Origin: Nemertoderma westbladi
Lineage: Eukaryota; Animalia; Xenacoelomorpha
DNA: 51,639 nt
Reading direction: 5' to 3'
Assembly (NCBI GenBank): GCA_032718475.1
Contig: JAUCBJ010003856.1
Coordinates: forward strand, 1 to 51,639
In this document: positions 21,620 to 51,639 of the stretch, piece after piece
How positions within the stretch are numbered: position 1 is the stretch's first letter
How the letters are laid out: the number at the start of each line of letters is the position of its first letter
Position numbers and translations under genes: made by a program
Notes under the pieces: generated by a model
Databases searched by the model: none
Seen by the model: the letters and a program-made list of their open reading frames with translations, nothing else
What the model was told of the DNA's origin: nothing

Positions 21620-22035
21620 ATTTTCGACCAAATAGATCAGCAAATACGAGGATACTAGTGCTACAGCTGTTGGTTGAAATAATTATTTCAAAGATCCTTC
21701 CTGCTATTCTGACATTTGTGGACTTCAAGAAAGCATTCGACTCCAGCCATAGATATAATATCGGAAAATCATTGCTGATATGGATTGCTATACTGAGACA
21801 CTGGAGCGTAGGTTTTTTCACCAGATGGAGAAACTGTGTTCTTTAAAATCATGGGTAGTATTACTGCAAGGCGACACATTAGCTCATTCACTATTCATAA
21901 ATTGTATTGGAATATACAATAGGGATAGCCATAACTGGTTATGATATTTGGTTCACTCTACAAGAACATAGAAGCGGCAGATATCCTGCTCATACAATCA
22001 CAGAACACTAACTTTGCGAATGATATTGCCGTTCT
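21620..22035 (+). mobile_element. Degenerate RTE/RTEX-like LINE RT fragment
   Basis: ILPAILTFVDFKKAFDS, LLQGDTLA, FTLQEHRSGRYPAHTIT and FANDIA. The first motif matches the LINE sequence at 51590-51639. Confidence 0.75.
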
Positions 22036-27624: not shown

Positions 27625-30286
27625 GTTGTTGCTCATTGTTGCTCGTTGTTGCTCATTGTTGCTCGTTGTTGCTCGTTGTTTCTCATTGTTGCCCATTGTT
27701 GCTCGTTGTTGCTCATTGTTGCTCGTTGTTGCTCGTTGTTTCTCATTGTTGCCCATTGTTGCTCGTTGTTGCTCGTTGTTGCTCATTGTTGCTCGTTGTT
27801 GCTCATTGTTGCTCGTTCTTGCTCATTGTTGCTCAATATTGCTCGTTGTTGCTCATTATTGCTCGTTGTTGCTCATTGTTGCTCATTGTTGCTCGTTGTT
27901 GGTCATTGTTGCTCATTGTTACTCGTTTTTGTACATTATTATTGTTCGTTCTTGCTCATTGTTGCTCGTTTTTGCTTATTGTTGCTCGTTGTTGCTCATT
28001 GTTGCTCGTTGTTGCTCATTGTTGCTCGTTGTTGCTCATTGCTGCTCATTGTTTTTCATTGTTGCTCGTTGTTGCTCATTGTTGCTCGTTGTTGCTCATT
28101 GTTGCTCGTTGTTGGTCATTGTTGCTCATTGTTACTCGCTGTTGTACTTTATTATTGCTCGTTGTTCCTCATTGTTGCTCGTTGTTGCTCATTGTTGCCC
28201 ATTGTTGCTCGTTGTTGCTCGTTGTTGCTCATTGTTGCCCATTGTTGCTCGCTGTTGCTCATTGTTGGTCGTTGTTGCTCGTTCTTGCTCATTGTTGCTC
28301 ATTGTTGCTCATTATTTCTCATTGTTGCTCGTTGTTGCTCATTGTTGCTTGTTGTTGTTCATTGTTGCTCGTTGTTGCTCATTGTTGCCCATTGTTGCTC
28401 GTTGTTGCTCATTGTTGCCCATTGTTGCTCGCTGTTGCTCATTGTTGGTCGTTGTTGCTCGTTGTTGCTCATTGTTGCTTATTGTTTCTCATTTTTGCTC
28501 GTTGTTGCTCATTATTGGTCATTGTTGCTCATTGTTACTCGCTGTTGTACTTTATTATTGCTCGTTGTTGCCCATTGTTGCTCGCTGTTGCTCATTGTTG
28601 GTCGTTGTTGCTCGTTGTTGCTCATTGTTGCTTATTGTTTCTCATTTTTGCTCGTTGTTGCTCATTATTGGTCATTGTTGCTCATTGTTACTCGCTGTTG
28701 TACTTTATTATTGCTCGTTGTTGCTCATTGTTGCTCGTTGTTGCTCATTGTTGCTCGTTGTTGCTCATTGTTGCTCATTGTTGCCCATTGTTGCTCGTTG
28801 TTGCTCATTGTTGATCGTTGTTGCTCATTGTTGCTCGTTATTGCTCGTTGTTGCTCGTTGTTGCTCGTTGTTGCTCGTTGTTGCTCGTTGTTGCTCGTTG
28901 TTGCTCATTGTTGCTCGTTGTTGCTCGTTGTTGCTCATTGTTGCCCATTGTTGCTCGTTGTTGCTCATTGTTGCTCATTGTTTCCCATTGTTGCTCGTTG
29001 TTGCTCATTGTTGCTCGATTTTGCTCATTGTTTCTCGTTGTTGCTCATTGTTGCTCGTTGTTGCTCATTGTTGCTCGTTGTTGCTCATTGTTGCTCGTTG
29101 TTGCTCGTTGTTGCTCATTGCTGCTCATTGTTTTTCATTGTTGCTCGTTGTTGCTCATTGTTGCTCGTTGTTGGTCATTGTTGCTCGTTGTTGCTCATTG
29201 TTGCTCGTTGTTGGTCATTGGTGCTCATTGTTACTCGCTGTTGTACTTTAGTATTGCTCGTTGTTCCTCATTGTTGCTCGTTGTTGCTCATTGTTGCTTG
29301 TTATTGTTCATTGTTGCTCGTTGTTGCTCATTGTTGCCCATTGTTGCTCGTTGTTGCTCGTTGTTGCTCATTGTTGCCCATTGTTGCTCGTTATTGCTCA
29401 TTGTTTGTCGTTGTTGCTCGTTGTTGCTCATTGTTGCTCATTGCTGCTCATTGTTGCTCGTTGTTTCTCATTGTTGCTCGTTGTTGCTCATTTTTTCTCG
29501 TTGTTGCTCATTGTTGGTCATTGTTACTCATTGTTACTCGCTGTTGTACTTTATTATTGCTCGTTGTTGCTCATTGTTGCTCGTTGTTGCTCATTTTTGC
29601 TCGTTGTTGCTCGTTGTTGCACATTGTTGCCCATTGTTGCTCGTTGTTGCTCGTTGTTGCTCATTGTTCCCCATTGTTGCTCGTTGTTGCTCATTGTTTC
29701 TCATTGTTGCTCGTTGTTGCTCATTTTTGCTCGTTGTTGCTCATTGTTTCTCGTTGTTGGTCATTGTTGCTCATTGTTACTCGCTGTTGTACTTTATTAT
29801 TGCTTGTTGTTGCTCATTGTTGCTCGTTGTTGCTCATTGCTGCTCGTTGTTGCTCATTGTTGCTCGTTGTTGCTCATTGCTGCTCATTTTTTCTCATTGT
29901 TGCTCGTTGTTGCTCATTGTTGCTCGTTGTTTCTCGTTGTTGGTCATTGTTGCTCGTTGTTGCTCATTGCTGCTCATTATTTCTCATTGTTGATCATTGT
30001 TGCTCATTGTTGCTCGTTGTTGGTCATTGTTGCTCGTTGTTGGTCATTGTTGCTCGTTGTTGTTCATTGTTGCTCATTGTTACTCGCTGTTGTACTTTAT
30101 TATTGCTCGTTGTTGCTCATTGTTGCTCGTTGTTGCTCATTGTTGCTCGTTGTTGTTCATTGTTGCTCGTTGTTGCTCGTTGTTTCTCATTGATGCTCAT
30201 TGTTGCCCTTTGTTGGTCATTGTTGCTCATTGTTACTCGCTGTTGTACTTTATTATTGCTCGTTGTTGCTCATTGTTGCTCGTTGT

Positions 30287-30865
30287 TGTGACGGGATCAG
30301 GGGATCCCGACCGGTTTATTGCGTTACGCGTCACCGTATTGTTTGTTGAGAAAATAATAGTTTGTTGTTGTTATCGCCTTTGATGTTGATATAGACTAGC
30401 TGATATAATATATATGATAGCACAGTTGACGGTTTATGGGGATAGTCAGATAATGAATGTTATACCGGTATTATGGTGACGGTACGAAAATGTCACCGAT
30501 CTGCACTGGATGACTGAAATGATCTGACCGGCAATATAATATATATATTGGTTATTCCTACATTACTTTGGCATCCCTATCTAGCGGATGCTTTCTTCGC
30601 CCTTATTGGCTAGTATCTTAATTCTTGGCTCCCACCTCTGTGGGAGTGCTTCCCCCCCCCCCCCCCCCCGCTGCTGTTACTTCCCCTCTCGAGGTAGTTT
30701 GACCTCTAATCTCTTTTTGTGTGTTGCTTTCGGGGCCGTGTGTTGCCCCCGTTATTGGGGGTGATACGATATTAATTGTGATTAACCTCGTATCCCCAAT
30801 ATTGCTGAAAAGGCGCCACTTCCCAACTTTATGGGGATAGTGAGGCGGAATTGAATCCGCTCACA
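30287..30865 (-). mobile_element. Second copy of the solo LTR with the same flanks
   Basis: Nearly identical to 27047-27624, offset by 3240 bp, with the same GTTGT TSD and the same satellite variants on both sides. Confidence 0.9.
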
Positions 30866-33800
30866 GTTGTTGCTCATTGTTGCTCGTTGTTGCTCATTGT
30901 TGCTCGTTGTTGCTCGTTGTTTCTCATTGTTGCCCATTGTTGCTCGTTGGTGCTCGTTGTTGCTCATTGTTGCTCGTTGTTGCTCATTGTTGCTCGTTCT
31001 TGCTCATTGTTGCTCAATATTGCTCGTTGTTGCTCATTGTTGCTCGTTGTTGCTCATTGTTGCTCATTGTTGCTCGTTGTTGGTCATTGTTGCTCATTGT
31101 TACTCGTTTTTGTACATTATTATTGTTCGTTCTTGCTCATTGTTGCTCGTTTTTGCTTATTGTTGCTCATTGTTGCTCGTTGTTGCTCATTGTTGCTCGT
31201 TGTTGCTCCTGGCTGCTCATTGTTTTTCATTGTTGCTCGTTGTTGCTCATTGTTGCTCGTTGTTGCTCATTGTTGCTCGTTGTTGGTCATTGTTGCTCAT
31301 TGTTACTCGCTGTTGTACTTTATTATTGCTCGTTGTTCCTCATTGTTGCTCGTTGTTGCTCATTGTTGCCCATTGTTGCTCGTTGTTGCTCGTTGTTGCT
31401 CATTGTTGCCCATTGTTGCTCGCTGTTGCTCATTGTTGGTCGTTGTTGCTCGTTCTTGCTCATTGTTGCTCATTGTTGCTCATTGTTTCTCATTGTTGCT
31501 CGTTGTTGCTCATTGTTGCTTGTTGTTGTTCATTGTTGCTCGTTGTTGCTCATTGTTGCCCATTGTTGCTCGTTGTTGCTCGTTGTTGCTCATTGTAGCC
31601 CATTGTTGCTCGCTGTTGCTCATTGTTGGTCGTTGTTGCTCGTTGTTGCTCATTGTTGCTTATTGTTTCTCATTTTTGCTCGTTGTTGCTCATTATTGGT
31701 CATTGTTGCTCATTGTTACTCGCTGTTGTACTTTATTATTGCTCGTTGTTGCTCATTGTTGCTCGTTGTTGCTCATTGTTGCTCGTTGTTGCTCATTGTT
31801 GCTCATTGTTGCCCATTGTTGCTCGTTGTTGCTCATTGTTGCTCGTTGTTGCTCATTGTTGCTCGTTATTGCTCGTTATTGCTCGTTGTTGCTCGTTGTT
31901 GCTCGTTGTTGCTCGTTGTTGCTCGTTGTTGCTCATTGTTGCTCGTTGTTGCTCGTTGTTGCTCATTGTTGCCCATTGTTGCTCGTTGTTGCTCATTGTT
32001 GCTCATTGTTGCCCATTGTTGCTCGTTGTTGCTCATTGTTGCTCGTTGTTGCTCGTTGTTGCTCGTTGTTGCTCGTTGTTGTTCATTGTTGCTCGTTGTT
32101 GCTCGTTGTGGCTCATTGTTGCCCATTGTTGCTCGTTGTTGCTCATTGTTGATCGTTGTTGCTCGTTGTTGCTCATTGTTGCCCATTGTTGCTCGCTGTT
32201 GCTCAGTGTTGGTCGTTGTTGCTCATTGTTGCTCGTTGTTGCTCGTTGTTGCTCATTGTTGCCCATTGTTGCTCGTTGTTGCTCATTGTTGATCGTTGTT
32301 GCTCGTTGTTGCTCATTGTTGCCCATTGTTGCTCGCTGTTGCTCATTGTTGGTCGATGTTGCTCGTTGTTGCTCATTGTTTCTCATTGTTTCTCATTTTT
32401 GCTCGTTGTTGCTCATTGTTGGTCATTGTTGCTCATTGTTACTCGCTGTTGTACTTTATTATTGCTCGTTGTTGCTCATTGTTGCTCGTTGTTGCTCATT
32501 GTTGCTCGTTGTTGCTCATTGTTGCTCATTGTTGCCCATTGTTGCTCGTTGTTGCTCATTGTTGCTCGTTGTTGCTCATTGTTGCTCGTTGTTGCTCGTT
32601 GTTGCTCGTTGTTGCTCATTGTTGCTTGTTGTTGTTCATTGTTGCTCGTTGTTGCTCATTGTTGCCCATTGTTGCTCGTTGTTGCTCGTTGTTGCTCATT
32701 GTTGGTCATTGTTGCTCATTGTTACTCGCTGTTGTACTTTATTATTGCTCGTTGTTGCTCATTGTTGCTTGTTGTTGCTCATTGTTGCTCGTTGTTGCTC
32801 GTTGTTGCTCATTGTTGCTCATTGTTGCCCATTGTTGCTCGTTGTTGCTCATTGTTGCTCGTTGTTGCTCATTGTTGCTCGTTGTTGCTCGTTGTTGCTC
32901 ATTGTTGATCGTTGTTGCTCGTTGTTGCTCATTGTTGCTCATTGTTGCTCATTGTTTCTCATTGTTGCTCGTTGTTGCTCATTGTTGCTTGTTGTTGTTC
33001 ATTGTTGCTCGTTGTTGCTCATTATTGCCCATTGTTGCTCGTTGTTGCTCGTTGTTGCTCATTGTTGCCCATTATTGCTCGCTGTTGCTCATTGTTGGTC
33101 GTTGTTGCTCGTTGTTGCTCATTGTTGCTCATTGTTTCTCATTTTTGCTCGTTGTTGCTCATTGTAGGTCATTGTTGCTCATTGTTACTCGCTGTTGTAC
33201 TTTATTATTGCTCGTTGTTGCTCATTGTTGCTCGTTGTTGCTCATTGTTGCTCGTTGTTGCTCGTTGTTGCCCATTGTTGCTCATTGTTGCCCATTGTTG
33301 CTCGTTGTTGCTCATTGTTGCTCGTTGTTGCTCATTGTTGCTCGTTGTTGCTCGTTGTTGCTCGTTGTTGCTCGTTGTTGCTCGTTGTTGCTCGTTGTTG
33401 CTCATTGTTGCTCGTTGTTGCTCGTTGTTGCTCATTGTTGCTCGTTGTTGCTCGTTGTTGCTCATTGTTGCCCATTGTTGCTCGTTGTTGCTCATTGTTG
33501 CTCATTGTTGCCCATTGTTGCTCGTTGTTGCTCATTGTTGCTTGTTGTTGTTCATTGTTGCTCGTTGTTGCTCATTGTTGCCCATTGTTGCTCGTTGTTG
33601 CTTATTGTTGCCCATTGTTGCTCGCTTTTAATCATTTTTGGTCGTTGTTGCTCGTTGTTGCTCATTGTTGCTCATTGTTGCTCATTGTTTCTCATTGTTG
33701 CTCGTTGTTGCTCATTGTTGCTTGTTGTTGTTCATTGTTGCTCGTTGTTGCTCATTGTTGCCCATTGTTGCTCGTTGTTGCTCGTTGTTGCTCATTGTTG

Positions 33801-34802
33801 CCCATTGTTGCTCGCTGTTGCTCATTGTTGGTCGTTGTTGCTCGTTGTTGCTCATTGTTGCTCATTGTTTCTCATTTTTGCTCGTTGTTGCTCATTGTTG
33901 GTCATTGTTGCTCATTGTTACTCGCTGTTGTACTTTATTATTGCTCGTTGTTGCTCATTGTTGCTCGTTGTTGCTCATTGTTGCTCGTTGTTGCTCATTG
34001 TTGCTCATTGTTACCCATTGTTGCACGTTGTTGCTCATTGTTGCTCGTTGTTGCTCATTGTTGCTCGTTGTTGCCCATTGTTGCTCGCTGTTGCTCATTG
34101 TTGGGCGTTGTTGCTCGTTGTTGCTCATTGTTGCTCATTGTTTCTCATTGTTGCTCGTTGTTGCTCATTGTTGCTTGTTGTTGTTCATTGTTGCTCGTTG
34201 TTGCTCATTGTGGCCCATTGTTGCTCGTTGTTGCTCGTTGTTGCTCATTGTTGCCCATTGTTGCTCGCTGTTGCTCATTGTTTGTCGTTGTTGCTCGTTG
34301 TTGCTCATTGTTGCTCATTGTTTCTCATTTTTGCTCGTTGTTGCTCATTGTTGGTCATTGTTGCTCATTGTTACTCGCTGTTGTACTTTATTATTGCTCG
34401 TTGTGGCCATTGTTGCTCGTTGTTGCTCATTGTTGCTCATTGTTGTTCGTTGTTGCTCATTGTTGCTCGTTGTTGCTCGTTGTTGCTCATTGTTGCCCAT
34501 TGTTGCTCGTTGCTGCTCATTGTTGCTCGTTGTTGCTCATTGTTACTCGTTGTTGCTCATTGTTGCACGTTGTTGCTCATTGTTGCTCATTGTTGCTCGT
34601 TGTTGCTCATTGTTGCTCATTGTTGCTCGTTGTTGCTCGTTGTTGCTCGTTGTTGCTCATTGTTGCCCATTGTTGCTCGTTGCTGCTCATTGTTGCTCGT
34701 TGTTGCTCATTGTTGCTCGTTGTTGCTCGTTGTTGCTCGTTGTGCATTTTAGCACCTACCCATTTGTGGGCGATGACTGACTAATTCAAGAGCTTGAGTT
34801 TT

Positions 34803-35522
34803 AGATACTTTTGATTTGATTATTACAATGATAAATTCAAAGTGCAATATTTTGGCAATATATTATACTTTCGACCAATATACAATACCTGCGGTACTCA
34901 ATGGAACAATAATAATACAATAATTAATAAGTTGTAAAACATTATTACATTAATTCTCATCTGTAAGTAAACACCATAGAATAATATTGATAATGATTCC
35001 CTATCTATTTAAAACCAAGACAATAGATTAGCGACTTTCAAAGTCGCGTTACGGCTACTCTGAAAATTAGCCGTAACGCGACTTTCAGTAACGCGACAGT
35101 AGCCTTACCGCCACGGCGCAGTGGCGGTACGGCTAATGTCGCGTTACGGCTAATTTTCATAGTAGCCCTAACGCGACTTTGAAAGTCGCGGTGCGGCTAC
35201 TCAAAAAGTCGCGTTACGGCTAATTGTCGCGTTACGGCTAATCTATTGTCATCAATCATGTTTTACATAGGGAATCATTATTACTATTATTCTATGGTGT
35301 TTACGTATAGATGAGGTCCGAAAAATGTAATGTAATAATGTTTTACAGCATGGGAGTATCCGGGGGGGGGGGGGGATTTTAACTAAAATAACTTAATTTA
35401 TTAATTATTGCATTATTATTGTTGTATTGAGTGCCACAGTACACTACACAGTACCATAGGTATATTGGTCGAAAGTATATCACTTTGAATTTATCATTAT
35501 AATAATGAAATCAAAAGTATCT
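34803..35522. repeat. ~720-bp imperfect foldback (inverted repeat) element
   Basis: The outer ends AGATACTTTTGATTT...TTCAAAGTG / CACTTTGAA...AAATCAAAAGTATCT pair, the centre is CCGCCAC-GGCGCA-GTGGCGG at 35108-35127, and TAGCCGTAACGCGAC motifs occur in both orientations. Confidence 0.85.
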
Positions 35523-35928
35523 TATACTAAAGGTCTTGAAATGAGGCATTTGGTTCGGTGGTGGGTTGGGAACAAATGGTTCAGCCGCGAAGGGGTGGTT
35601 CACTACACCAACATGCCAGTCGGGATCACCACCCCCTCCCAATGTAGTTGGACCTTCAACTGGGTGATCGGCGGCCGGAAGGACGGCCATTGCCTGCTTG
35701 TCAATCCCCAAACAGAACGCCGTAATGGTCTAGGTGGAGAGCCAGGAGTTGGTTAACAACATCGATAAGAAGTAGTGGAATATGTTCCAAAAAACCATTC
35801 TTGCTTCTTTGGCTGTTATTATTGGCTTTAATCGGTACCTGTGCTTGAGGCTGTGACTAAGAATACAATATAATACAATATTACATTGAATGTGAGGTTG
35901 TCGAAGAACATACAGTATGAAAGATTGT

Positions 35929-36110
35929 AAAATCCCCCCCCCCCCCCGGATACTCCCATTCTGTAAAACATTATTACATTACATTTTTCGGACCTCATCT
36001 ATACGTAAACACCATAGAATACTATTGATAATGATTCCCTATGTAAAACCAAGACAATAGATTAGCCGTAACGCGACAATTAGCCGTAACGCGACTTTTT
36101 GAGTAGCCGT
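35929..36110. repeat. Third copy of the foldback arm
   Basis: Reverse complement of ~35195-35381 (polyC-GGATACTCCC...TAGCCGTAACGCGAC). Confidence 0.85.
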
Positions 36111-37427: not shown

Positions 37428-38846
37428 CTGCTACACAAAGGTATGGCTGGGCGCTACTCCTATCTGCTACGTGCTACACAAAGGTAGGGCTGGGCGCTAC
37501 TCTTATCTGCTACCCGCTACTCGAGGGTAGGGCTGGGCGCTACTCCTATCTGCTACCCGCTACTCGAGGGTAGGGCTGGGCGCTACTGCTACCCGCTACA
37601 CAAAGGTAGGGCTGGACGCTACTCTTATCTGCTACCCGCTATACAAAGGTAGGGCTGGACGCTACTCTTATCTGCTACCCGCTACTCGAGGGTAGGGCTG
37701 GGCGCTACTCCTATCTGTTACCCGCTACACAAAGGTAGGGCTGGACGCTACTCTTATCTGCTACCCGCTATTCGAGGGTAAGGCTGGGTGCTACTCCTAT
37801 CTGCTAACCGCTACACAAAGGTAGGGCTGGGCGCTACTCCTATCTGCTACCCGCTACCCGAGGGTAGGGCTGGGCGCTACTCCTATCTGCTACCCGCTCT
37901 CGAGGGTAGGGCTGGGCGCTACTCCTATCTGTTACCTGCTACACAAAGGTAGGGCTGTGCGCTACTCCTATCTGTTACCCGCTACACAAAGGTAGGGCTG
38001 GGCGCTACTCCTATCTGCTACCCGCTACACAAAGGTAGGGTTGGACGCTACTCTTATCTGCTACCCGCTACTCGAGGGTCGGGCTGGGCGCTACTCCTAT
38101 CTGCTACCCGCTACACAAAGGTAGGGCTGTGCGCTACTCCTATCTGTTACCCGCTACACAAAGCTAGGACTGGGCGCTACTCCTATCTGTTACCCGCTAC
38201 ACAAAGCTAGGGCTGGGCGCTACTCCTATCTGTTACCCGCTACACAAAGGTAGGGCTGTGCGCTACTCCTATCTGTTACCCGCTACACAAAGGTAGGGCT
38301 GGGCGCTACTCCTATCTGCTACCCGCTACACAACGGTAGGGTTGGATGCTACTCTTATCTGCTACCCGCTACTCGAGGGTCGGGCTGGGCGCTACTCCTA
38401 TCTGCTACCCTCTACACAAAGGTAGGGTTGGACGCTACTCTTATCTGCTACCCGCTACTCGAGGGTCGGGCTGGGCGCTACTCCTATCTGCTACCCGCTA
38501 CACAAAGGTAGGGCTGCGCGCTACTCCTATCTGTTACCCGCTACACAAAGCTAGGACTGGGCGCTACTCCTATCTGTTACCCGCTACACAAAGCTAGGGC
38601 TGGGCGCTACTCCTATCTGTTACCCGCTACACAAAGGTAGGGCTGTGCGCTACTCCTATCTGCTACCCGCTACACAAAGGTAGGGTTGGACGCTACTCTT
38701 ATCTGCTACCCGCTACTCGAGGGTCGGGCTGGGCGCTACTCCTATCTGCTACCCGCTACACAAAGGTAGGGCTGGGCGCTACTCCTATCTGCTACCCGCT
38801 ACACAAAGGTAGGGTTGGACGCTACTCTTATCTGCTACCCGCTACT
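37428..38846. repeat. 43-bp minisatellite (ATCTGCTACCCGCTACACAAAGGTAGGGCTGGGCGCTACTCCT)
   Basis: About 33 tandem copies with two main variants (CACAAAGGT vs CTCGAGGGT). Confidence 0.97.
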
Positions 38847-39074
38847 GTTTTTTGGCAAGCACTCTAAAATTATTTTGACAGGTTGTTAAAAGTCGGTAGA
38901 GGTTTTTTTGAACCAAATTTCATGAAATCCATTGAGATATCACAAAATATGGATAGGGGATAACCAATGGGAAAAGAAAAGGAGATACCAGTACTGAAAA
39001 TAGCGGGAACATTTGAAATATATTGTTCTTAAACTTTAGATGCGTTTATCTCGGAATTGTATTTTTCACATTTT

Positions 39075-40691
39075 TTTTCAATGAACGCACGCTCGCTGAA
39101 AGCACAGAGCAAACAGGGTGACATGGTCGCTCTGGCAATGGAATATAACATCGACATCATCTGCATCCAAGAACATCGGATTTGTCATGAAGACACTGCC
39201 ATGAAGTACAATGACATTGGAAATGGATGGACGTTAGTAACAAGCTCAGCAGTAAGAAACTCGGCCAATGCATCAATTGGTGGAGTAGGAATTCTGCTAA
39301 GCCCATTTGCACTTAAGACCCTAAACAACATCGAATCTATAAATTCCAGGGTTATGATCGCAACATTTGATGGGAATCCCAAGACAACAGTTATATGTTG
39401 CTACAGTCCAACCAATGCATCAGAGCCAGAACAAGCAGTCAAGTTTTATGAAGAACTGACTGGACTTATTAAGGACATCCCGAAACACAATGTTAAAGTC
39501 ATTGCTGGTGACCTGAATGCGCAAATTGGCCCAGAAGACATCAAGGGTTACACCTATAACACCAGTTCTAACAGAAATGGGTACTTACTCTTAGACCTAA
39601 TGGAAGAATGTGAATTGATACCAACAAACAACACATTCGAAAAGAGTAAGGGGAAGCTATGGACCTTTCAATACCCTAATGGAACCAAAGCACAACTGGA
39701 TTACATCCTTATAAACAAAAAGTGGAGAAATAGCATGATCAACTGCGAGGCATACAGCTCGTTCAACCTAATTGGTTCGGACCGCAGAATTGTGACTGCA
39801 GAGATCAGACTCAGTTTAAGAGCCAGCAAACCCAGGACAAGCAAGCAAATCAACTATGACTGGGAGAAACTCAGAACTGACAATGCTGTAAAGGATGCTT
39901 ATACAGTAGAAGTTCAAAACCGCTTTGAAGCACTTCAGTCAATGGATGAAGACCAATCCACCGATTCAATATACCAGAATATAATAACAGCCCACAAGGA
40001 ATCAGCTAAGAGGCATATCCCCCAGAAACCTAAACGAAAACAGTATGTGCCATGGCAAAACTCTGAGGTTACTTGTAAGAGAGAAGATCTTAAGATAGCC
40101 TACAAAGTAAAAACCGAACAACCAACAACCAAAAACATTAACAAGGTTGAGAAAGCTAAGGACGATCTTAAATTGGCCTACAACATCAGCCAGGAAAAGT
40201 ACATACAGGATAAAACTGAAGCAATTACAACTGCTCACATACAGCAACAATCAAGACTTACCTGGCAAACTGTAAATGAGGTATCTGGTCGGAAAAGTTC
40301 TGCAAAGGGGCGCCTCAAAGCCGATAGTCCTGAAGAACGTGTTGGGAAGTGGAAAAATCACTTCAGCAACTTGCTTGGGCAGCCACCAAACATCGAGGTC
40401 AGCCCTACAAGGAAAATATATGACAAGACACTACCTATAGAAACAGGGGACTTCACACCTGCCGAACTCCAAAGAAGCATTAAAAGCATGTCCAATAATA
40501 AAGCGAGTGGATTAGATGAAATCCCAGCGGAGGTATGGAAAACCGGAGTGCTAAATAGACCATTATTGAATGTTTGCAACCGGATGTTAAAAGGGGAAAA
40601 GCCACCACCAATTTGGACTAAAGGTCAACTAAAGCCTCTCCCCAAGAAAGGAGACCTCGGCATACCAACAAACTATCGTGGGATCTGTCTG
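39075..40691 (+). mobile_element. RTE/RTEX-like LINE ORF2, N-terminal part (APE endonuclease and start of RT)
   Basis: APE motifs MNARSL, IICIQEHR, GGVGILL, YSPT, IAGDLNA, QLDYIL and SDRR, then KASGLDEIPAEVWK and PLPKKGDLGIPTNYRGI. It is interrupted at 40691 by an LTR element. Confidence 0.93.
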
Positions 40692-41914
40692 TGTAAAAGC
40701 TTTTGCGGAATTGCCCGGTTATTTTCCCCGTAAAGTACTCTGTAGTTGGTTTAGCAGGCATAAAAGGCCGTGTCATTGCTGTACCGGTGTTTTTAGGGGA
40801 CATAAAAGCTATTTCTTCTGTATGTGTACTTTAGAGGACATAATTAGCAATTCTATGACGCAACGCCCTAGATCCTCTTGAAACAGTGTCATTACTATGA
40901 CGACAGCTAACGGCTGAGCTTTACATGTGTAGCTTGCCCGGAGCCTTGCCTTGGTTCTTTGTTCTGCTCAGCTCAAAATGACGACATCTATCAGCTGTGT
41001 CCACGTGGAGCTCTTTGCCATTCGACCAATCAGAGATTCCCTCTTTGTGTAAAAGCTGTACAGCAGAATTACAGGGTTCAGTACTGACGTTTCCCCCACG
41101 CCTAGAACACCGGCCGGGGAATGTTTTCTGACATTAGAGCGTCTTTAATTATAAGATCATCAAACGGTTATCACGGTTTTGCACCTTGGCATCTGTAAAA
41201 GCTCACCCTGACGTAAACTGCTTTTCGCCGCATTATTTACTGCTATTTACTGTGTTGTTAATTGTATCGTTCGTTTACATATTATTATTGGGAAGAATAT
41301 TGATAACGATCTGAAAACCCAATCTTCTTGATACACTAAGGTTAGAGAGACCGGTTACATATAACAATTTGCGACATACATTATTGTGGTTTGTAGTGAG
41401 TTCAATGCTACTTAATAGGCCCTACAAATGTTGGTTGCTGTTCTCTTTATATATGATTAAAATCAGTGAATATCGGCAATTCATGTATGCAATTGTGTGC
41501 AATAGTCTGTGTGTGCTTGACCGAGTAACAAAGCATTTCCTAAAGAATGCACTTTGGTGATCTATAAGACATACCGTTGTGCATAGTGTAAGTCATAGCT
41601 CTGTTTAAATAGATAGAGCGCCACGTCCTAAAGGAACTGCTAATATTTCCCGAAAGTGAATAATATTTATCAGAGATTATATATTAACGATCAATCGAAT
41701 AGTACGGTAGGCCTGCACCGCAATCAAATTAAAGCATCCAAACCCAGTCTCCAGGGTATATCCAGCGGGTGAATGGTCGCGCACAGACTGGCTTTGGCTA
41801 ATGTTAGAATTATTATAGGTGTTCAATACTTGTCATAGGCTGGAGTAGATTTATAACCTAGAAGACATATAGATTTGGCGGGTTAAACTGCCAAAGGTCT
41901 TAAAAGCGCGAACA
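40692..41914 (+). repeat. 5' LTR (1223 bp)
   Basis: Direct repeat of 50219-51426. CCAAT (~41027), TATA-like GTAAAAG (~41049) and Inr-like TCAGT (~41078) occur in promoter order. Confidence 0.95.
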
Positions 41915-42269
41915 ATAACCGTTTGTAAAATTCTTGATTGCAGTGTAGGCAATAAATACAGTTTAATATTGTTCTGGTAAGAACAATAACAGTTTATAGG
42001 ATCTTGATTGCGGCGTAAGCGATCAAGACTAAAGTACCGGTCGACCGGTAACCAGTAGGCCTGACTGCCTGATCATCCGGACCGGTACTTACAACAGTAC
42101 AGGTACAGCAGTATTATTCGATTTTGATAATTATATACCGGTAGGTCTTGATATTAAATCGGGGACTGCAGCCCTGGTTTTTTATTGGGATTTTTACTTA
42201 TTTCTGTCAGTTTTATTTACTAGTAGGCTAATATTGAGCAGAAGGCGTGTAACCCTGCTCAGATTGTAC

Positions 42270-42850
42270 AGATAATTTGTAGGCCGAACTGTTGTTCTGA
42301 CTGTTATTAGGTCTGAAGAGATTGCTGCGTGTGTAGAGTTTGTCTGATAAAGTGCCAGTTAGTAAGTTGGGGCATCTTGAGTTGTAAGGTCAACCCCCTC
42401 CTAAAGAATAAGTCGTACTACCGTGTTAGAACGCATACTAACTAACCATTTCGGAATCTGCATATACTGTAGTTTATTTAGGCTTGATAGTAGTCTGCCA
42501 GCGTTTTAGCCTGTGTTTGTTTGTGTGGTCTGTTCAGGTACCGTAATAGTTATTACTCAGATATTTTGTAGGCTGGATTGTTATCTAGCTGTTATTAGAT
42601 CTGAAGAGATTACTGCGTGTGTAGAGTCTGTCCGATAAAGTGCCAGTTATTAAGTTGGGGCATCTTGAGTTGTAAGGTCAACCCCCTCCTAAAGAATAAG
42701 TCGTACTACCGTGTTAGAACGCATACTAACTAACCATTTTGGAATCTGCACATACTGTAGTTTATTTAGGCTTGATGGTAGTCTGCCAGCGTTTGGTTTG
42801 TATTTTGTTTGAGTATTCTGTACGGGTAGCGTAATATTTATTATTCAGAG
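42270..42850. repeat. 288-bp tandem duplication in the BEL element leader
   Basis: CATCTTGAGTTGTAAGGTCAACCCCCTCCTAAAGAATAAG occurs at 42373 and 42661. Confidence 0.9.
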
Positions 42851-43896
42851 TTTATGCGATTATTCGCAACATTCATATCCCTAAGTTTATTCCTACAGTA
42901 ATTGTGCTTGTTATATATACCGTTATAGTTAAATTAACCCCGGTACTACACGGGCTGCTTGGCGTAGGTAAAGACTGGTGATTTTGTGCACCGGTCACTC
43001 CAGCAGATGCCGTGGTTCTTTTAGCTGTTCAAGTATTTTTAACTACTGATTATTTGTTGTACCAGTACTTGTACCTAATTTAGGGTTTAGTGTACAGTGC
43101 TTTCCGAAGTTAATTAGTGTGTAGGCAGTATATTTGTGTTGTAAAGTGGTTAATAGGCACGTTGGTTCTGGTAGACCGCGGTAATTAACTTCTAGGTAGG
43201 GACACTCCGTGATAAATAACGTAATACCTATAGCGATACGGCTATAGGTCGTCAGACGGTGGTATTTTCCTATCTGGACAACGCAGTGTATTTACTACTA
43301 CTTATTATTTTCAAATACCGTAGTATCCTGTCCGTTTGTAATAACCAGATTTCTAACCCTTTGTTAGGCTGGTTTGTAGACTTCTTGTAAAATTACCCTA
43401 AAAATTCGTATTTGTGTTTTTTGTAATTTTTTGTGTTTATTTAGAGATTGTAATCTCACCCCGAATTGTACGTAATTGTAGTAATAAGTAACTTAGGAAG
43501 TAGAATTATTTGTTTTAGTGTCCAATAAGTAGTACTTCACTGAGAGCGCACAGCCTTTGTGTAGTGACTACTTCCCAGAAATAATAACATCTATTTCAAT
43601 ATTGTAACAAAACCCCTCATACGGGTACATATAAATCCACTAAATCTATTAATAAAATAGTAGGCCTGTTATACAACACTTAGGTCTTAATATCAGTTGG
43701 ACTGCTGCTCAAATAACGGTAATAAAGTAAGTAAAGTAACCAAGTAACCCCTAACATTCAGAAATTCAATTATTTTTAAAATAATTGACATACCGGTATT
43801 TACAATAGGCTTATTATATTTATTCTATAAATTTAGGCTGAAATCATACCGGTATTCTGTAATTAATTCTAGTCTGTAGCAGCAGCAGCAAAGGCA

Positions 43897-46800
43897 GTGG
43901 CAGAAGCAGAACGGAGAGCGTCTGAGGAGACTACCCAACTGGAGTTGGAAAATCTGCAAGAGACGCAAGACTGCATAAATAAACAGTTAACTGCTAGTCA
44001 AATGCAGATGATGAGTCGATCTACTCCCAAACGCCAAGAATACACATCATCGGAAGAAGGCGAGACCACCGATCCTGAAGGCGGAGGAAATAGATCTCGT
44101 CTAAGCAGGCGTAGAAAAACATCTCATCGTCACAAATTGCCTGATTTGCCCCCAGCGGTTAGAAGACAACTAGCTAGCACAGACTTAGGTAATACAGAAC
44201 CCACAGACCAAATTATTAAGGTCAAAAGACTCCCTACGATAGTTGATGAGCCTGAAATAATTAGGCCTGTCGTTCCCAAAGCCACTCCTGTGCTAGAGAC
44301 CCCTGTACTTCCAGAGCTTAACTCTAAATCCCCTTTACACAGTACTACACTGCCTGTACCCAGTAGAACAGTCCAGGAGAATATCCCTGTCCTGGACGCT
44401 GAGAGAGAAATCAAAGATTTGTCTCCCGTCGTCCCGCGTCTGCCCGCTACAATGTTGGCGACTCCCGCTTCGGCGGTCGAGTGGGTAGAGGAGGGACGGC
44501 GGGGGATGAATCTCCTGCTCGGACAGATGCAGGAGACTGTCCACCAACTCAAGGGAACATTAAGGGAAAGTAGGGTAGAATTGCAAGAAGTGCAGCAAAG
44601 CATCGCGCTAGAACGCGACAAATTAGTCAATATACAAAAGGGTATACCAATACCCCCTGTAACATTGTGTCAACCTGTTAGGTCTGAAGTATTACATGCG
44701 CAAGGTGTGGAGCCTACACGCATCTATACTGCTAGTGAAGTAGAAACTCCTATAGCAAACCCTATTAAGGGTGATTATAAACCTGTTGTTGATGATATTC
44801 CCTATAGACCTGATAATAATCCGGGAAATTTATATACCGATAATTCGATATTAAATAACACGATGGCCCAAGAAAGCTTTACGCGTCAGATGGCTAGAAC
44901 AGAAGCCCGCCAAGCGGTCAAAGTGGGAGAAATCGTCAAATTCAATGGAGATGAGATGAAATGGTTACCTTTTAATGAATATTACAAAGATAGCATACAG
45001 AACTCTGTACTATCTAACGGAGAGAAACTTAGATTCCTCATCAAGTGCTTGGAAGGACCTCCCAAGTTAATGGCATTAAAGTTTATTGGACATCCAGATG
45101 GATTAAGACAAGTTTGGGATACATTAAACATCAGGTATGGTAACAAGGATAACATAGCTAATTATTTGTATGCAAAATTAGTAGCCCCCCGAAAGTTCCT
45201 TAGTAGCGGGATTATAAAGTTTTCCGATGAGATTCAGGAGATCTGTAGACAATTGGATTGGTTAGGTAAGTCTCAGGAATATCAGAGTTCCATGGTTATT
45301 GGAGCCGTAGTCTCCACTTTACCAAAGGGTGGAGTATGTACACGCTGGGACAAGAAAGTGTTGTATATGAATGAGCAGCAACGACGAGGCCCTACCATGG
45401 CTGATCTCATGTCCTTCTTAGATAGTGAAGTAAAATTACAACTCATAAAGCAGTCCAGAGAGAAAACATCGGAAAATAAGGTAAGTGAGAAACCCGTTTC
45501 TAGGAGAAGGGTAACACCAGTGTGTTATACTGACGACGGTGAAAGCCAAGTCTCTCAGGAAGAGGACAGCGGGAAAGACACAGCAAAATCTTACTATGAC
45601 AACAAGACCTATAAAGACGTAAGTAAATATAAGTCTCGAACCAGTGACAGGAGAGAACAGGTAACAACAACTCCTCCTACGTCTCCTAAGAGAATTCACG
45701 GAAGAAAGCCCGAAGAAAGAACGAGAGTGCATAACGTTACCCAAGGTAAAGTGAGTAACATCAAACCAAAATGTGCGCTGTGCGACGGGCCCCACCGTTT
45801 GAGTGTGTGTGCTGAATTCCTAAAGAAATCCCTGGTAGACAGACGTGAAGTCATGTGGGATAAGCGGTTATGCTATAATTGCCTCAGACAAGGACACCAA
45901 CGGCGAACCTGTTACTCCGACGTAAAGTGTGCAAAGTGCGGTGCGAAACATCACATCTTGTTACACAGTGAATTCGAACGAAACAACCCGAGTCAGGTAA
46001 GTGAGCCCGAACTACATGTCCAATTCAGTGATGTAAATGACACTGATCAAGAATCTGAGATGGAAGGATTCTATACGGACGAATTCTCCGACGCCAACAA
46101 ATCCTGTTACCTAATAAATACCGCAGTGTATCGAGCACTTACTTACGAAAAGGACACCGACAATGAGTTCCCCCCAACTACCTTTGACAGACAACCATCT
46201 TGGAAAGATCCAACTTCCAACGTAGGAATCAGAGAATTTCCTGTAGTGCAGGTAAGAGTTCACGGTCCTAACAAAAGTTACATAGTGAACGCCCTCCTTG
46301 ACTCCGGCAGCACAGGAACATTCATCGATCAAGAACTAGCCGAAGATATCTTTGCTGGACAACCCAAATTCCAAACTAAGTTGAATATGTCTGGAATTAT
46401 GCAGGTTTGGAAATCTACCATAACGGCAGATTACTATGTAGGTGCGTTGTCCACCCCCCAGGATAAATTAGGAGCACAAAGTATAAAGTCAGTAAAAATG
46501 GTGGCTATAAAGAACTTCGCTACTACCCAAGTAGAACCTTATAACTTGGACGAGGACGAGAGCATCCAGCAGCTTAAGATACCTCGATTCCACACAGATT
46601 ATCCTGGAGTGCAAATACTCATTGGCCAAAACGCGCATGAGGCGCTAGAGACATTGGAGAAACGGCCTGCTCAACCACAGCCACTACAAACCTATGCGGT
46701 AAGAACTAGAGTAGGTTGGTACTTCACTGGCCCTTCCCGTAGAACTCTCAAAGAGAGATTACCTCAAGAACAGGTATACCAAGTAAAGGAATGGGAAGTG

Positions 46801-47205
46801 GAGAGCAGTGAGGTGGACGACCCAACTGAGGGAACACCATACTCCTCAGATAATGACGATATTAACTCCACTATAGATCAATGGAGACATTGCCTTGGGA
46901 CGATTAATCCAGCCGACATCGCTTCCAGAGGAGCAACTCCTCAAGAACTGATAGATACTCCAGGCTGGTTAGGTGGATCCGACTTCTTAAGTAAAGAAGA
47001 AGAAGAATGGCCTCCTCATCTTACCACGGCGGAGATTAGACAGGCCAAGGGAGCGGAGAAAGTAACACAACAACTCAATCGCCCAGCTGGTCGTTTATGT
47101 TTACTGGAAAGAGACCGAAAACTGTCCGGAAACTATGGAAGGCAAGATACTCTTCCTACGACCACTTCCCTAATCCGACAAATATCTAGGGACTCCATAA
47201 CGTAA
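43897..47205 (+). CDS. BEL/Pao Gag-protease polyprotein fused in frame to an RNase H C-terminal stub; RT and integrase absent
   Basis: DUF1759-like Gag (KFNGDEMKWLPF...LSNGEKLRFLIKCLEG...WDTLNIRYG), three Cys/His knuckles (CALCDGPH, CYNCLRQGHQRRTC, CAKCGAKHHILLH) and an aspartic protease (ALLDSGSTGTFI, ILIGQN, RTRVGW). These are followed by WRHCLGTINPADIASRG...EEEWP. The start codon is uncertain (GTG in the track; first ATG at ~44002). Confidence 0.9.
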   Translation: MAEAERRASEETTQLELENLQETQDCINKQLTASQMQMMSRSTPKRQEYTSSEEGETTDPEGGGNRSRLSRRRKTSHRHKLPDLPPAVRRQLASTDLGNTEPTDQIIKVKRLPTIVDEPEIIRPVVPKATPVLETPVLPELNSKSPLHSTTLPVPSRTVQENIPVLDAEREIKDLSPVVPRLPATMLATPASAVEWVEEGRRGMNLLLGQMQETVHQLKGTLRESRVELQEVQQSIALERDKLVNIQKGIPIPPVTLCQPVRSEVLHAQGVEPTRIYTASEVETPIANPIKGDYKPVVDDIPYRPDNNPGNLYTDNSILNNTMAQESFTRQMARTEARQAVKVGEIVKFNGDEMKWLPFNEYYKDSIQNSVLSNGEKLRFLIKCLEGPPKLMALKFIGHPDGLRQVWDTLNIRYGNKDNIANYLYAKLVAPRKFLSSGIIKFSDEIQEICRQLDWLGKSQEYQSSMVIGAVVSTLPKGGVCTRWDKKVLYMNEQQRRGPTMADLMSFLDSEVKLQLIKQSREKTSENKVSEKPVSRRRVTPVCYTDDGESQVSQEEDSGKDTAKSYYDNKTYKDVSKYKSRTSDRREQVTTTPPTSPKRIHGRKPEERTRVHNVTQGKVSNIKPKCALCDGPHRLSVCAEFLKKSLVDRREVMWDKRLCYNCLRQGHQRRTCYSDVKCAKCGAKHHILLHSEFERNNPSQVSEPELHVQFSDVNDTDQESEMEGFYTDEFSDANKSCYLINTAVYRALTYEKDTDNEFPPTTFDRQPSWKDPTSNVGIREFPVVQVRVHGPNKSYIVNALLDSGSTGTFIDQELAEDIFAGQPKFQTKLNMSGIMQVWKSTITADYYVGALSTPQDKLGAQSIKSVKMVAIKNFATTQVEPYNLDEDESIQQLKIPRFHTDYPGVQILIGQNAHEALETLEKRPAQPQPLQTYAVRTRVGWYFTGPSRRTLKERLPQEQVYQVKEWEVESSEVDDPTEGTPYSSDNDDINSTIDQWRHCLGTINPADIASRGATPQELIDTPGWLGGSDFLSKEEEEWPPHLTTAEIRQAKGAEKVTQQLNRPAGRLCLLERDRKLSGNYGRQDTLPTTTSLIRQISRDSIT

Positions 47206-47753
47206 TAACATATGGAGTGGGCGTGTGACTATATCATTTTATATTTGTTTTTATTTTTATATTTATGTATGTATTATTATGTAATTTTATTATAATCGTT
47301 TTCTTTAATTTTATTTAGTAGAATGTTATTTTAGTGATTATTTAGTAGATTAGTGCAATATATTAGTGTTTATTACGTACGTAATTACTTATAATATATA
47401 TTTAGTGCGACGGCGAGAAATAATTATTTTTCTCTTTCCTTACTGTCCGTATCATATTATAAATACGTGACTACAGTAAGATGAAATGTCCGTACTTATT
47501 AAAGTACAATAAAGCCACTACTATATTCAAGTATTATTGGTAGGCAGAGTATTAGGAATGCAAAGTTCAGATCCTCGTGTCTCGGCTAAACCAAGCTCTG
47601 GGTAGACCTTGGAGACGACTTGCCTCTTCACACTGACATTGCTTCGTGCGATATTGCTCTCATACCATATATAATAATACATATAGTAGCGTGATGTCCC
47701 TCTAACAGTAGCGTGAAACACAAATAAATCTGTTAAACCTTTTGACCATCTGT

Positions 47754-48035
47754 AATTCTAGTCGATTAAGATATCGCGGCACCCACCGATATACTTGAAA
47801 GACAAATTCTAGAATCAGTGGTTAACGTCCCCAGACAAGTTCTGGAATAAATTGGTGCCCATCTCAAATATTAATTATTTAATATTTATAAATCTATAAA
47901 TCAAAATCTGTAAAATTCAGATCCTTTAACAATTCTAGTCGATTAAGATATCGTAGCACTTACCGATACTCTTAAAAGACAATTTTCATAGAATTAAGGA
48001 TCCTATGTCCCCAGACCTGCTCTGGAATCAAATTG
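47754..48035. repeat. Diverged ~100-bp direct repeat (177-bp spacing) in the BEL 3' region
   Basis: AATTCTAGTCGATTAAGATATCG...GTCCCCAGAC...CTGGAAT occurs at ~47754 and ~47931. Confidence 0.8.
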
Positions 48036-50218
48036 TGTCAATTGCACTATCAAATAATAAAATTTCAGGGAATAAATTTGAATTCATATTTTAATGAATT
48101 TAATAAATTGTCATTCTGTGCAATTTATAACATTCCCAAAATCCCATTAATTAATAGATCACGGGAGCGGAGATTCGTCCTATTAAGTGTGTTAGAGTGT
48201 GAGAATCTCCCATGTATGAGTCAATAGCCGATAAAATTTATAAAATCATATATAAACGAGATATTGGACCATTAAAGAATTACTATTAAATAGCATCCCA
48301 GATCTGTATGCATTGGAATTACCCTAATTCTACCGCTAGCTTTAAATAATGTCACCATAGTAACACCCACGCTAGAATTAGAAACAAGTTAAAAAGAACA
48401 ATAGAAAGCTTGCCCCATTGCATAGTAAGAAATAAATAGCGCACTGCTAGTATCCAAGGATACATAATAATAACGTGGCATTCTGGAAGGCACTGACTAA
48501 CGGACAAATGGCCCGAGTGTGTGTAATTTGTGACAGTTGTGTGTGTGGAATTTGTGAGTTTATAGGCGAATGTTACTACTAAGGTGTGTTTACAGTAGCG
48601 AGTCGCAATTGTGAAAGTAACCCTAACTCTCCAGTAAGAACCTGAAGTGTATCTAAGCCTTTGGGACGGACAGTGGAGTGACTCGTGCTAGTGTAATTGT
48701 CGTTGTGTAGCTACACGTTGGCGGAAAACACAGCGACGACGATACATTTGCGCTGAGGATTGTACACTGTCCGGGGTTGATTGGGGTAGGCAGCGACGCT
48801 CGCTAGCCTAATTATAAGCTCATTATAATATTTATAAACTCATATATAGCAGATATAACGGAGTTAATAGAAGATGGTCTTGGTATCGGGGAGCGATATA
48901 CTCTACCTTTACAAGTGTTTGTTGATAGTTTGATACGCGGCGACGCTAGTCCAACTACTACGGAGGACGATGGTCGTTATATCGAACCGACGATTTCCTC
49001 GAAGCAACTTACGCGTGAATTGGACTATGGAAAATTCACCGCTCGCTACACGCATCGCAATAGTACGTATATGGACTTCTTAACCATTGGCCATTCTATC
49101 GATTCACACGATACGGACTATGTCGAACATATATCCTACCCAGCGGAGTCGGAACGATAAACTGAAATTCGAATGCGAAAATTCTATTCGAAATCGACTC
49201 GAAAGAAAAGACATTAGAGAGACAAATGGACGCGGTAACTCTAACGTATATTTGGAGTTCTTGATAGAAGCATTGTAACAACAAATAAATATCATCCGCG
49301 TTTCCCCTACCAGACGTGCGTCTTTGGTATTATTACGATAAATGCCCTAGACCCAACTAATAAACGGAAAGACATAAATATCCACGGAAACCGAAACTTG
49401 TTCGACATATCACCTACGCTCGCTCGACTCAGATGATCCTTGAGTAAACCTACGATCATAGTTCCCGGAATACTCGGTCAGACCACCTCGTTCCTTGATT
49501 AGACCTCAGACTTTCGATTCTGATGGTATCCCGGATCCTCACGAGCTGTATTCACTGTTCAAAGATCTAGTGCTACCCTAACAATTAATCGGTAACACTC
49601 TGGCAGCGAGCTCTAGCTAGCCGCCCATCTTACCTAGCCGTATTGGGACGAGGACACCTAATATCACCATTCAACCGTATGGTCGTCCCAGTTTAACGCG
49701 ATACAACCCTTCATCAATGTGAAGGAGAACGTTGTACGAAACGAGTTAAACGCTATTCTACAAATATCAGAAAGGAAACCTGCATTTGTTCAGATAAACG
49801 TAAGTTATAACAGCAAGTCCAAGCGGTAAACGAATTGGCTTTATCTCAGTTCGATTGGGAAATCTTGAATCTCTAAGAAGATATCGAGCTTAGACAACCC
49901 TATTCTCTGCGAGAGTTTTGGATGAGCGTGTCCAACGACAAGCGGAGGAAAATCAGCTCGAGGAGAAGCAGATCGAAATGGACGAGACACTGACCGTAAC
50001 CCTAAACCTTCTGATGCAATTGTATTGCACCCTTCACCCAGGAGTTATAGCCCTCCTAGTAAAGTGGCTCGCTCCAAAGAGAAAAGGACTCTTGCTAGTC
50101 TCAAGAAACTGCGTAAACGCCGTCCGCGCAAGAAAAACTAACTGTTTAGAGTATCTTTATATTTTAGAAACTGTGATTTTTATATTTTATAGACTAAAAT
50201 CCCATTTTCTGGGAGCGG

Positions 50219-51426
50219 TGTAAAAGCTTTTGCGGAATTGCCCGGTTATTTTCCCCGTAAAGTACTCTGTAGTTGGTTTAGCAGGCATAAAAGGCCGTGT
50301 CATTGCTGTACCGGTGTTTTTAGGGGACATAAAAGCTATTTCTTCTGTATGTGTACTTTAGAGGACATAATTAGCAATTCTATGACGCAACGCCCTAGAT
50401 CCTCTTGAAACAGTGTCGTTACTATGACGACAGCTAACGGCTGAGCTTTACATGTGTAGCTTGCCCGGAGCCTTGCCTTGGTTCTTTGTTCTGCTCAGCT
50501 CAAAATGACGACATCTATCAGCTGTGTCCACGTGGAGCTCTTTGCCATTCGACCAATCAGAGATTCCCTCTTTGTGTAAAAGCTGTACAGCAGAATTACA
50601 GGGTTCAGTACTGACGTTTCCCCCACGCCTAGAACACCGGCCGGGGAATGTTTTCTGACATTAGAGCATCTTTAATTATAAGATCATCAAACGGTTATCA
50701 CGGTTTTGCACCTCGGCATCTGTAAAAGCTCACCCTGACGTAAACTGCTTTTCGCCGCATTATTTACTGCTATTTACTGTGTTGTTAATTGTATCGTTCG
50801 TTTACATATTATTATTGGGAAGAATATTGATAACGATCTGAAAACCCAATCTTCTTGATACACTAAGGTTAGAGAGACCGGTTACATATAACAATTTGCG
50901 ACATACATTATTGTGGTTTGTAGTGAGTTCAATGCTACTTAATAGGCCCTACAAATGTTGGTTGCTGTTCTCTTTATATATGATTAAAATCAGTGAATAT
51001 CGGCAATTCATGTATGCAATTGTGTGCAATAGTCTGTGTGTGCTTGACCGAGTAACAAATGCACTTTGGTGATCTATAAGACATACCGTTGTGCATAGTG
51101 TAAGTCATAGCTCTGTTTAAATAGATAGAGCGCCACGTCCTAAAGGAACTGCTAATATTTCCCGAAAGTGAATAATATTTATCAGAGATTATATATTAAC
51201 GATCAATCGAATAGTACGGTAGGCCTGCACCGCAATCAAATTAAAGCATCCAAACCCAGTCTCCCGGGTATATCCAGCGAGTGAATGGTCGCGCACAGAC
51301 TGGCTTTGGCTAATGTTAGAATTATTATAGGTGTTCAATACTTGTCATAGGCTGGAGTAGATTTATAACCTAGGAGACATATAGATTTGGCGGGTTAAAC
51401 TGCCAAAGGTCTTAAAAGCGCGAACA
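50219..51426 (+). repeat. 3' LTR (1208 bp)
   Basis: Direct repeat of 40692-41914. Confidence 0.95.
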
Positions 51427-51639
51427 GTCTGCTTGTGGTAGCTGCCAAAATATACAATAAAATGATTCTATATAGGATTAGGCCTCACATAGAGAAACTA
51501 CTGCGTAAGAGCCAAAACGGATTTCGTCCAAGTAGATCAACAATAGCTCAGATACTTGCACTACGGAGACTGATTGAAGGAATCAAGTCAAAGAATCTCC
51601 CCGCAGTCATGACTTTTGTGGACTTCAAGAAGGCATTCT
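51427..51639 (+). mobile_element. Continuation of the RTE/RTEX-like LINE ORF2 (RT domain)
   Basis: Removing the LTR element and one TSD restores NYRGICLLVVAAKIYNKMILYRIRPHIEKLLRKSQNGFRPSRSTIAQILALRRLIEGIKSKNLPAVMTFVDFKKAF in frame. Confidence 0.95.

Follow-up and report, generated by a model that had tools for sequence, protein, structure and literature searches.

An LTR Segment as Candidate Self-Primer in a Non-Autonomous BEL/Pao Retrotransposon of Nemertoderma westbladi

Results

The LTR retrotransposon at 40692–51426 of the window, by which we mean the whole 51,639-nucleotide stretch of Nemertoderma westbladi DNA analyzed here, probably uses a segment of its own transcript as the primer for minus-strand DNA synthesis. 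The primer-binding site (PBS) position, 41915–41925, follows the 5′ LTR with zero spacer and does not begin with TGG. As proposed in the initial annotation, it is the exact reverse complement of 41161–41171, a segment inside the LTR that is termed here the candidate self-primer and is identical in the 3′ LTR (50688–50698); these features, like all those of the element given below, lie on the plus strand. The match ends at 11 nucleotides on both sides, and the two 11-mers pair in the register that a primer needs. The primer of Tf1 is likewise 11 nucleotides long.

Among 1958 start positions in the leader, the 11-mer is the longest exact LTR complement, followed by two 10-nucleotide complements, one of which is the same site shifted by one base. 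The duplex of the PBS-position 11-mer with 41161–41171 is also the best among 1211 LTR windows. Seven of 20,000 dinucleotide-shuffled LTRs contain the 11-mer (3.5 × 10−4), in agreement with the chance estimate of about 3 × 10−4 made at first reading. A looser published rule for self-priming (at least 10 nucleotides of complementarity starting 0–5 nucleotides after the LTR; PMC6317226), is passed by 129 of the 20,000 shuffles and also by the element, which has 11 nucleotides at offset 0. When G·U pairs are allowed, a second 11-base-pair partner of the PBS position appears among 9104 windows, in gag at 45861–45871 (−12.1 vs −12.9 kcal/mol for the LTR partner), so that it is the exactness of the Watson–Crick match that carries information.

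Past the LTR, TGG first occurs at 41975, 60 nucleotides away, so the early observation that a TGG-starting, tRNA-type PBS is lacking holds, and the 18-nucleotide Belpaoviridae-type PBS for the 3′ end of tRNA-Arg or tRNA-Gly is absent. Other sources of a primer within the element were considered and rejected. Upstream of 41161, the match can be extended past a loop by just five more pairs, which compete with the U5-leader stem described below. Removal of GT/GC–AG introns from the LTR yields no complement longer than 11 nucleotides (one 10-mer), and neither ARAGORN nor Rfam finds a tRNA in the element. The 41080–41171 piece folds no better than its shuffles (z −1.25). A 71-nucleotide duplication in the leader spans 41910–42050, and its second part, 41981–42050, repeats the LTR-end/PBS/stem unit in tandem, as an old copy that has diverged by about 20% in its first 50 nucleotides. 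The PBS-like copy in this duplicate loses 2 of the 11 primer pairs, and its stem arm pairs at 15 of 17 positions.

The element is bounded by a 5′ LTR of 1223 nucleotides (40692–41914, TG…CA) and a 3′ LTR of 1208 nucleotides (50219–51426) that begins with TG and ends with CA. The two LTRs are 0.5% apart, with 6 substitutions over 1208 aligned bases and one 15-nucleotide indel, and are flanked by a 5-bp target site duplication (TSD), GTCTG, at 40687–40691 and 51427–51431. A short purine-rich tract abutting the 3′ LTR (50210–50218) is the likely polypurine tract (PPT). From the two LTRs and the TSD we infer that the copy was made by reverse transcription and that its priming site worked, unless it was lost later; a two-LTR, TSD-flanked copy of 0.5% divergence should therefore have been primed at this site, yet there is no TGG within 60 nucleotides. 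The insertion target is the coding region of a LINE, the endonuclease frame of which runs from 39033 into the insertion (LINE part, 39033–40691), and LINE RT-like sequence, recognized by eye, picks up again after 51427 (51427–51639). A fragment related to this LINE is found at 21622–21738.

A gag-protease open frame of 1110 codons, stop to stop (43873–47205), comprises in order DUF1759, a Cys-His region, a DSG protease, and the remnant of an RNase H–integrase linker. The DUF1759 Gag match scores 47.4 bits (profile cut-off 25.4), and the DSG protease match scores 17.1 bits, under its cut-off of 24.3. All three database protein matches are full-length polyproteins with Pao peptidase and DUF5641 domains, and a further search added two gag-protease proteins as relatives. 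The initial assignment to BEL/Pao is thus supported by the DUF1759 Gag, the protease, and the Pao- and DUF5641-bearing relatives. When these five relatives were compared with the window by tblastn, matches were limited to Gag, the protease, and a linker piece of 44–67 residues at 46822–47076; RT, RNase H, and integrase were not found in the element in this comparison. Judged by its sequence, the element is therefore a young, recently inserted, non-autonomous BEL/Pao derivative and not a complete member of the family.

Several other parts of the element are repetitive or structured. The 2-kb leader contains a 290-bp tandem duplication (42269–42849, 90% alike). The 3-kb stretch that separates the end of the gag-protease frame from the 3′ LTR (47206–50218) shows no similarity to the five BEL/Pao proteins, has no frame of 120 codons or more, and contains a 100-bp duplicate at 47754–47854 and 47931–48035. 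Within the gag frame, 44411–44517 folds into a long, G+C-rich hairpin with hardly a break (−66.6 kcal/mol; z −6.4 relative to 200 shuffles) that drew weak miRNA-family matches and is a possible packaging signal or small-RNA source. Outside the element, the window contains an uninterrupted rhodopsin-family GPCR frame on the minus strand (16393–17712; 7tm_1, 129.8 bits), 12 kb of satellite sequence repeating a 10-bp unit, with steps of 13 bp in places (about 22480–34780), a tandem array repeating about every 43 bp (37430–38846), and MITE-like inverted repeats with arms at 35194–35381 and 35928–36109 (94% alike), with more such pairs at 13578–14512 and 3841–12623.

In the proposed mechanism, the transcript would fold back such that 41161–41171 pairs with 41915–41925. 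By analogy to Tf1, the RNase H of a partner RT, supplied in trans from an autonomous relative, would cut after 41171, and the new 3′ end at 41171 would prime the copying of U5 and R back to 41172, giving a minus-strand strong-stop DNA of about 743 nucleotides. Plus-strand synthesis, again following Tf1, would later copy the primer and rebuild the PBS, and therefore primer and PBS would stay exactly complementary.

The central helix, 41161–41171:41915–41925, is predicted to be flanked by an R/U5 helix and crossed by a U5-leader stem, together constituting a Tf1-type pretzel. In the first of these, the R segment 41172–41215 is predicted to pair with the U5 end (41852–41910), continuing the central helix in register; it is the second-best partner locus of the U5 end, equalled or surpassed by 1 of 31 non-overlapping windows. 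A predicted local U5 hairpin resembling a U5-IR (41871–41900, −12.1 kcal/mol) is an alternative to this pairing. The U5-leader stem joins an LTR arm (41711–41727), immediately upstream of the poly(A)-like hexamer ATTAAA at 41728, to a leader arm (41934–41950) with 16 pairs over 17 positions and one mismatch. For the leader arm, this stem ranks first among 599 LTR windows and second among 149 internal windows; alternatively, the leader arm can form a local hairpin with 41949–41956.

In unconstrained folds of RNAs that start at 41080 or 41161 and end at 41926–41945, 10 of the 11 central pairs form in 10 of 10 folds, as do 25 adjacent long-range pairs. In folds that include the leader, the probability of the central helix is near 0 in 10 of 10 runs, and forcing it costs 3.4–7.6 kcal/mol. 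The fold-back is present in the free minimum-energy fold until the crossing U5-leader stem is included; the central helix and this stem cross, and nested folding cannot contain both. No base has to serve in more than one of the three helices, and therefore a pseudoknot could in principle hold all three.

Promoter words were compared with the position of the primer. Candidate promoter A (41026–41082) has CCAAT at 41026, the TATA-like word TGTAAAAG at 41048, and an Inr-like TCAGT at 41078–41082 with a predicted start at A41080; its TATA-like and Inr-like words each have one mismatch to the consensus. A start at A41080 would place the 11-mer at +82 to +92. The promoter-like words described at first reading are thus present about 80 nucleotides upstream of the 11-mer, but they make a weak promoter call because the LTR contains three copies of the 10-mer with the TATA-like word, at 40692, 41048, and 41194. 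The first of these occurrences is formed by the first 10 bases of the LTR, and the exact recurrences may reflect a repeated factor site or old internal duplications. Candidate promoter B (41150–41157), a putative rival, is TATA-like with two mismatches and has no Inr within one mismatch; it would start the RNA near 41180, downstream of the primer, which would be lost. A start at 41159–41162, which has no TATA upstream, would give a Tf1-like element and explain the sharp 11-nucleotide limit of the match. The primer would be either the first 11 bases of the RNA or the 3′ end of a capped piece of about 92 nucleotides; its placement inside the RNA follows from promoter A, which sequence by itself supports no further than as a candidate. 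Tf2 uses alternative starts, of which just one includes the primer (PMC5341516), and by this precedent more than one start may be real here. Also upstream of the primer, a branch-point-like word at 41128–41132 and an AG at 41154–41155 could constitute a splice acceptor, for which the upstream part of the LTR contains no good splice donor.

Sister copies were sought in eight listed runs, all of which consist of contigs and none of which is recorded as RNA, a record that does not bear on expression; seven contain part of the element. On 40660–42300, contigs aligned at 80% likeness in runs X1 (7045), X3 (2063), and X5 (95), and no contig of run X7 aligned over this interval at that likeness. The contigs at 80% indicate a family with several subfamilies. 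Run X5 bears another organism label; because its depth profile and variants follow organism A, it is not counted as an independent species, and the sister data represent one subfamily. The variant readings below are taken from the best-supported 40 of 160 differences and the best-supported 18 of 373 loose ends.

Over 41155–41209, alignment depth reaches its minimum in X1, takes one of its lowest values in X3, and drops to zero in X5, and therefore the sister LTRs do not align over the primer. The self-priming BEL/Pao lineage put forward in the initial annotation retains the BEL/Pao origin, the lack of a tRNA-type PBS, and the two flanking helices in its favor, but covariation of primer and PBS was not observed, as sister LTRs do not align over 41161–41171 at 80%. 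One X5 contig has ATAAC straight after the LTR end and differs from the window at four of the next six bases, such that the sister PBS differs at 4 of 11 sites. It has a single unit where the window has the 71-nucleotide duplication, and an X3 loose end shows part of the same sister leader; both organism A runs give high depth over the leader farther downstream. Since the sister contig also starts with ATAAC rather than TGG, the non-TGG start is not a deletion private to the window copy, a possibility raised at first reading; this applies to the best-supported variants, rarer subfamilies aside. By eye, the sister PBS has a 10-nucleotide complement in the leader of the window near 42298–42307, outside the LTR, where the duplicate unit of the window has 8 exact complementary bases; this counts against self-priming.

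The U5-leader stem has changed on both arms. The sister leader arm, read by eye, differs at 41936 and 41943, and a loose end before 41741, found in 23 contigs of X1 and 2 of X5, differs at 41713, 41715, 41718, 41719, and 41725. With the sister letters, also by eye, 41725:41936 and 41718:41943 are altered on both sides and still paired; the changes at 41713 and 41715 give a different standard or wobble pair, and the one at 41719 hits the unpaired base. Pairing thus survives four of four paired-site changes, the two arms being read on separate contigs, and a hand estimate of chance is 6/120 × (1/3)^4, or about 6 × 10−4, for one comparison. Self-priming gains support from the two predicted flanking helices together with the compensatory changes in one of them. 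The covariation of the stem does not identify the primer, however, because tRNA-primed retroviruses also have a U5-leader stem. A weak hint of a boundary after the primer comes from 11 distinct joints, 5 of them inside the LTR; 3 of the 10 ends of these five fall at 41172, the base after the primer. The alignments concerned are short, lie near a small repeat, and each seem to consist of one contig.

Scans of viral, metagenome, prokaryote-genome, and plasmid sequences turned up no further LTR-bearing relatives. A pattern scan returned two viral and two metagenome loci that share just 17–25 nucleotides around the pattern and were dropped as chance. A protein-guided scan with the three full-length BEL/Pao proteins confirmed none of 364 viral and 34 prokaryote-genome candidates, and the plasmid scan gave no match.

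Discussion

The arrangement described above resembles that of Tf1 and Tf2 of Schizosaccharomyces pombe, Tj1, Tosmo1–3, and the Tf1/sushi group, in which the PBS behind the 5′ LTR complements the LTR of the same element (PMC10085805, PMC4600332, PMC5341516). The Tf1 pretzel is described as a central primer–PBS duplex and two duplexes joining PBS-adjacent sequence to the LTR downstream of the primer (PMC10085805); counterparts of these two further helices, also part of Tf1-like elements (PMC10085805, PMC4600332, PMC5341516), are predicted here. The differences are that Tf1/sushi elements are Ty3/gypsy chromoviruses and the Gag and protease of this element are BEL/Pao, so the likeness is one of working only; that the loop closed by primer–PBS pairing is about 740 nucleotides here, unlike in Tf1; that the Tf1 primer is the 5′ end of the RNA, whereas the best promoter call here predicts a primer about 80 nucleotides inside it; and that this copy, unlike Tf1, has no RT or RNase H of its own. 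In its mode of working the element is likely Tf1-like, by descent it is BEL/Pao, and it belongs fully to neither group.

Similar to Belpaoviridae (Semotivirus), the element has TG…CA LTRs of 1.2 kb, a 5-bp TSD, a DUF1759 Gag, a protease, and a short PPT, and its linker remnant is similar to full-length BEL/Pao polyproteins. ICTV describes Belpaoviridae as having an 18-nucleotide PBS for host tRNA-Arg or tRNA-Gly and replication that is tRNA-primed and poorly understood (PMC8742986); this PBS and most of pol are missing from this copy. Self-priming is demonstrated in Tf1 and has been predicted in certain Ty3/gypsy and Copia lineages, the groups reported being Tf1/sushi, Tcn1, and TAR elements (PMC6317226, PMC4600332, PMC6934838). 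For the plant Tcn1 chromoviruses and the TAR (Houba/Osr-1) Copia elements, the prediction is based on the rule of at least 10 nucleotides starting 0–5 nucleotides after the LTR (PMC6317226), to which the present element also conforms; those elements belong to plant hosts and other superfamilies, and their self-priming is prediction only. Fungal GalEa Copia elements and bivalve TRIMs lack a tRNA PBS and have a conserved hairpin just behind the LTR (PMC5445492, PMC6934838). In GalEa the authors report no LTR complement of the site (PMC5445492), in contrast to the exact one here.

We found no report of a self-priming BEL/Pao element in the largely open-access literature searched; an earlier mention elsewhere, for instance in Repbase or GyDB, is possible. 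The parts of PMC3601003, PMC5445492, PMC5443660, and PMC8220671 that are accessible name no such case, and the main texts of the BEL/Pao surveys PMC554778, PMC3118150, and PMC6238403 mention neither PBS nor tRNA.

A more specific form of self-priming, a BEL/Pao lineage with an internal primer, is proposed here tentatively. Transcription would start near 41080, and a cut after 41171 would free a capped, tRNA-sized piece of about 92 nucleotides with its last 11 bases on the PBS. The crossing stem would also hide the poly(A) signal of the 5′ LTR, and non-autonomous copies would keep the whole fold and be cut and copied in trans.

Three other explanations of the 11-nucleotide match were weighed against self-priming. 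The best of them, although unlikely, is that priming falls to a fragment of host RNA, for instance a half tRNA, and that the fold-back is a regulatory or chance pairing that this fragment displaces. Host tRNA priming is what ICTV gives for BEL/Pao (PMC8742986), and half-tRNA and internal-tRNA primers are known in Copia lineages (PMC6317226, PMC5445492). With no TGG, however, the site suits no mature tRNA 3′ end, the element contains nothing tRNA-like, and the PBS differs between subfamilies at 4 of its 11 bases. The window, duplicate, and sister versions of the PBS do share ATAAC and two further bases, and the sister and duplicate versions could presumably pair over 7–8 bases with the anticodon loop of tRNA-Asn, which counts for a host fragment. 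The window PBS breaks this presumed pairing at 41920, yet matches its own LTR at 11 of 11 positions. An ATAAC followed by four of six differing bases in the sister would fit a self-encoded primer better than one invariant host RNA.

It is improbable that the fold is instead an RNA switch for polyadenylation or packaging, in which the leader masks the poly(A) signal of the LTR and the 11-mer is a switch helix and not a primer. The leader is present behind the 5′ LTR only, the covarying stem abuts ATTAAA at 41728, and the arm with the sister letters itself holds a canonical hexamer, as read by eye. In addition, the leader arm can instead fold into a local hairpin, incompatible with the stem, that covers a second hexamer at 41951, and the U5-leader stem beats the central helix in nested folding. 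A switch, however, leaves the element without an identified primer and does not explain an exact match that begins at the first base after the LTR. It is also compatible with self-priming and may be an additional task of the same stem.

Least probable of all is that the match arose by chance or that the true PBS was lost in the rearrangement that gave rise to the 71-nucleotide duplication. In its favor, some matches at 3 × 10−4 will be chance when very many LTR elements are scanned, the leader adjoining the LTR is rearranged (41910–42050), and an 11-bp wobble partner exists elsewhere in 9.1 kb. On the other side, the sister contig, with its single unit, likewise starts with ATAAC and contains the stem arm, both runs of organism A show deep coverage of the downstream leader, and the flanking helices line up with the 11-nucleotide match.

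Self-priming by the LTR segment makes a sharp prediction, namely an RNA end at 41171/41172. If true, BEL/Pao would be the third superfamily with this mechanism, and in invertebrate animals, which would suggest a repeated origin of self-priming or an older one. Should the primer be internal, the Tf1 rule that the primer is the 5′ end of the RNA would not be general. Self-priming would also account for those BEL/Pao copies to which annotation tools assign no PBS, and elements primed in this manner would escape control by tRNA supply or tRNA fragments.
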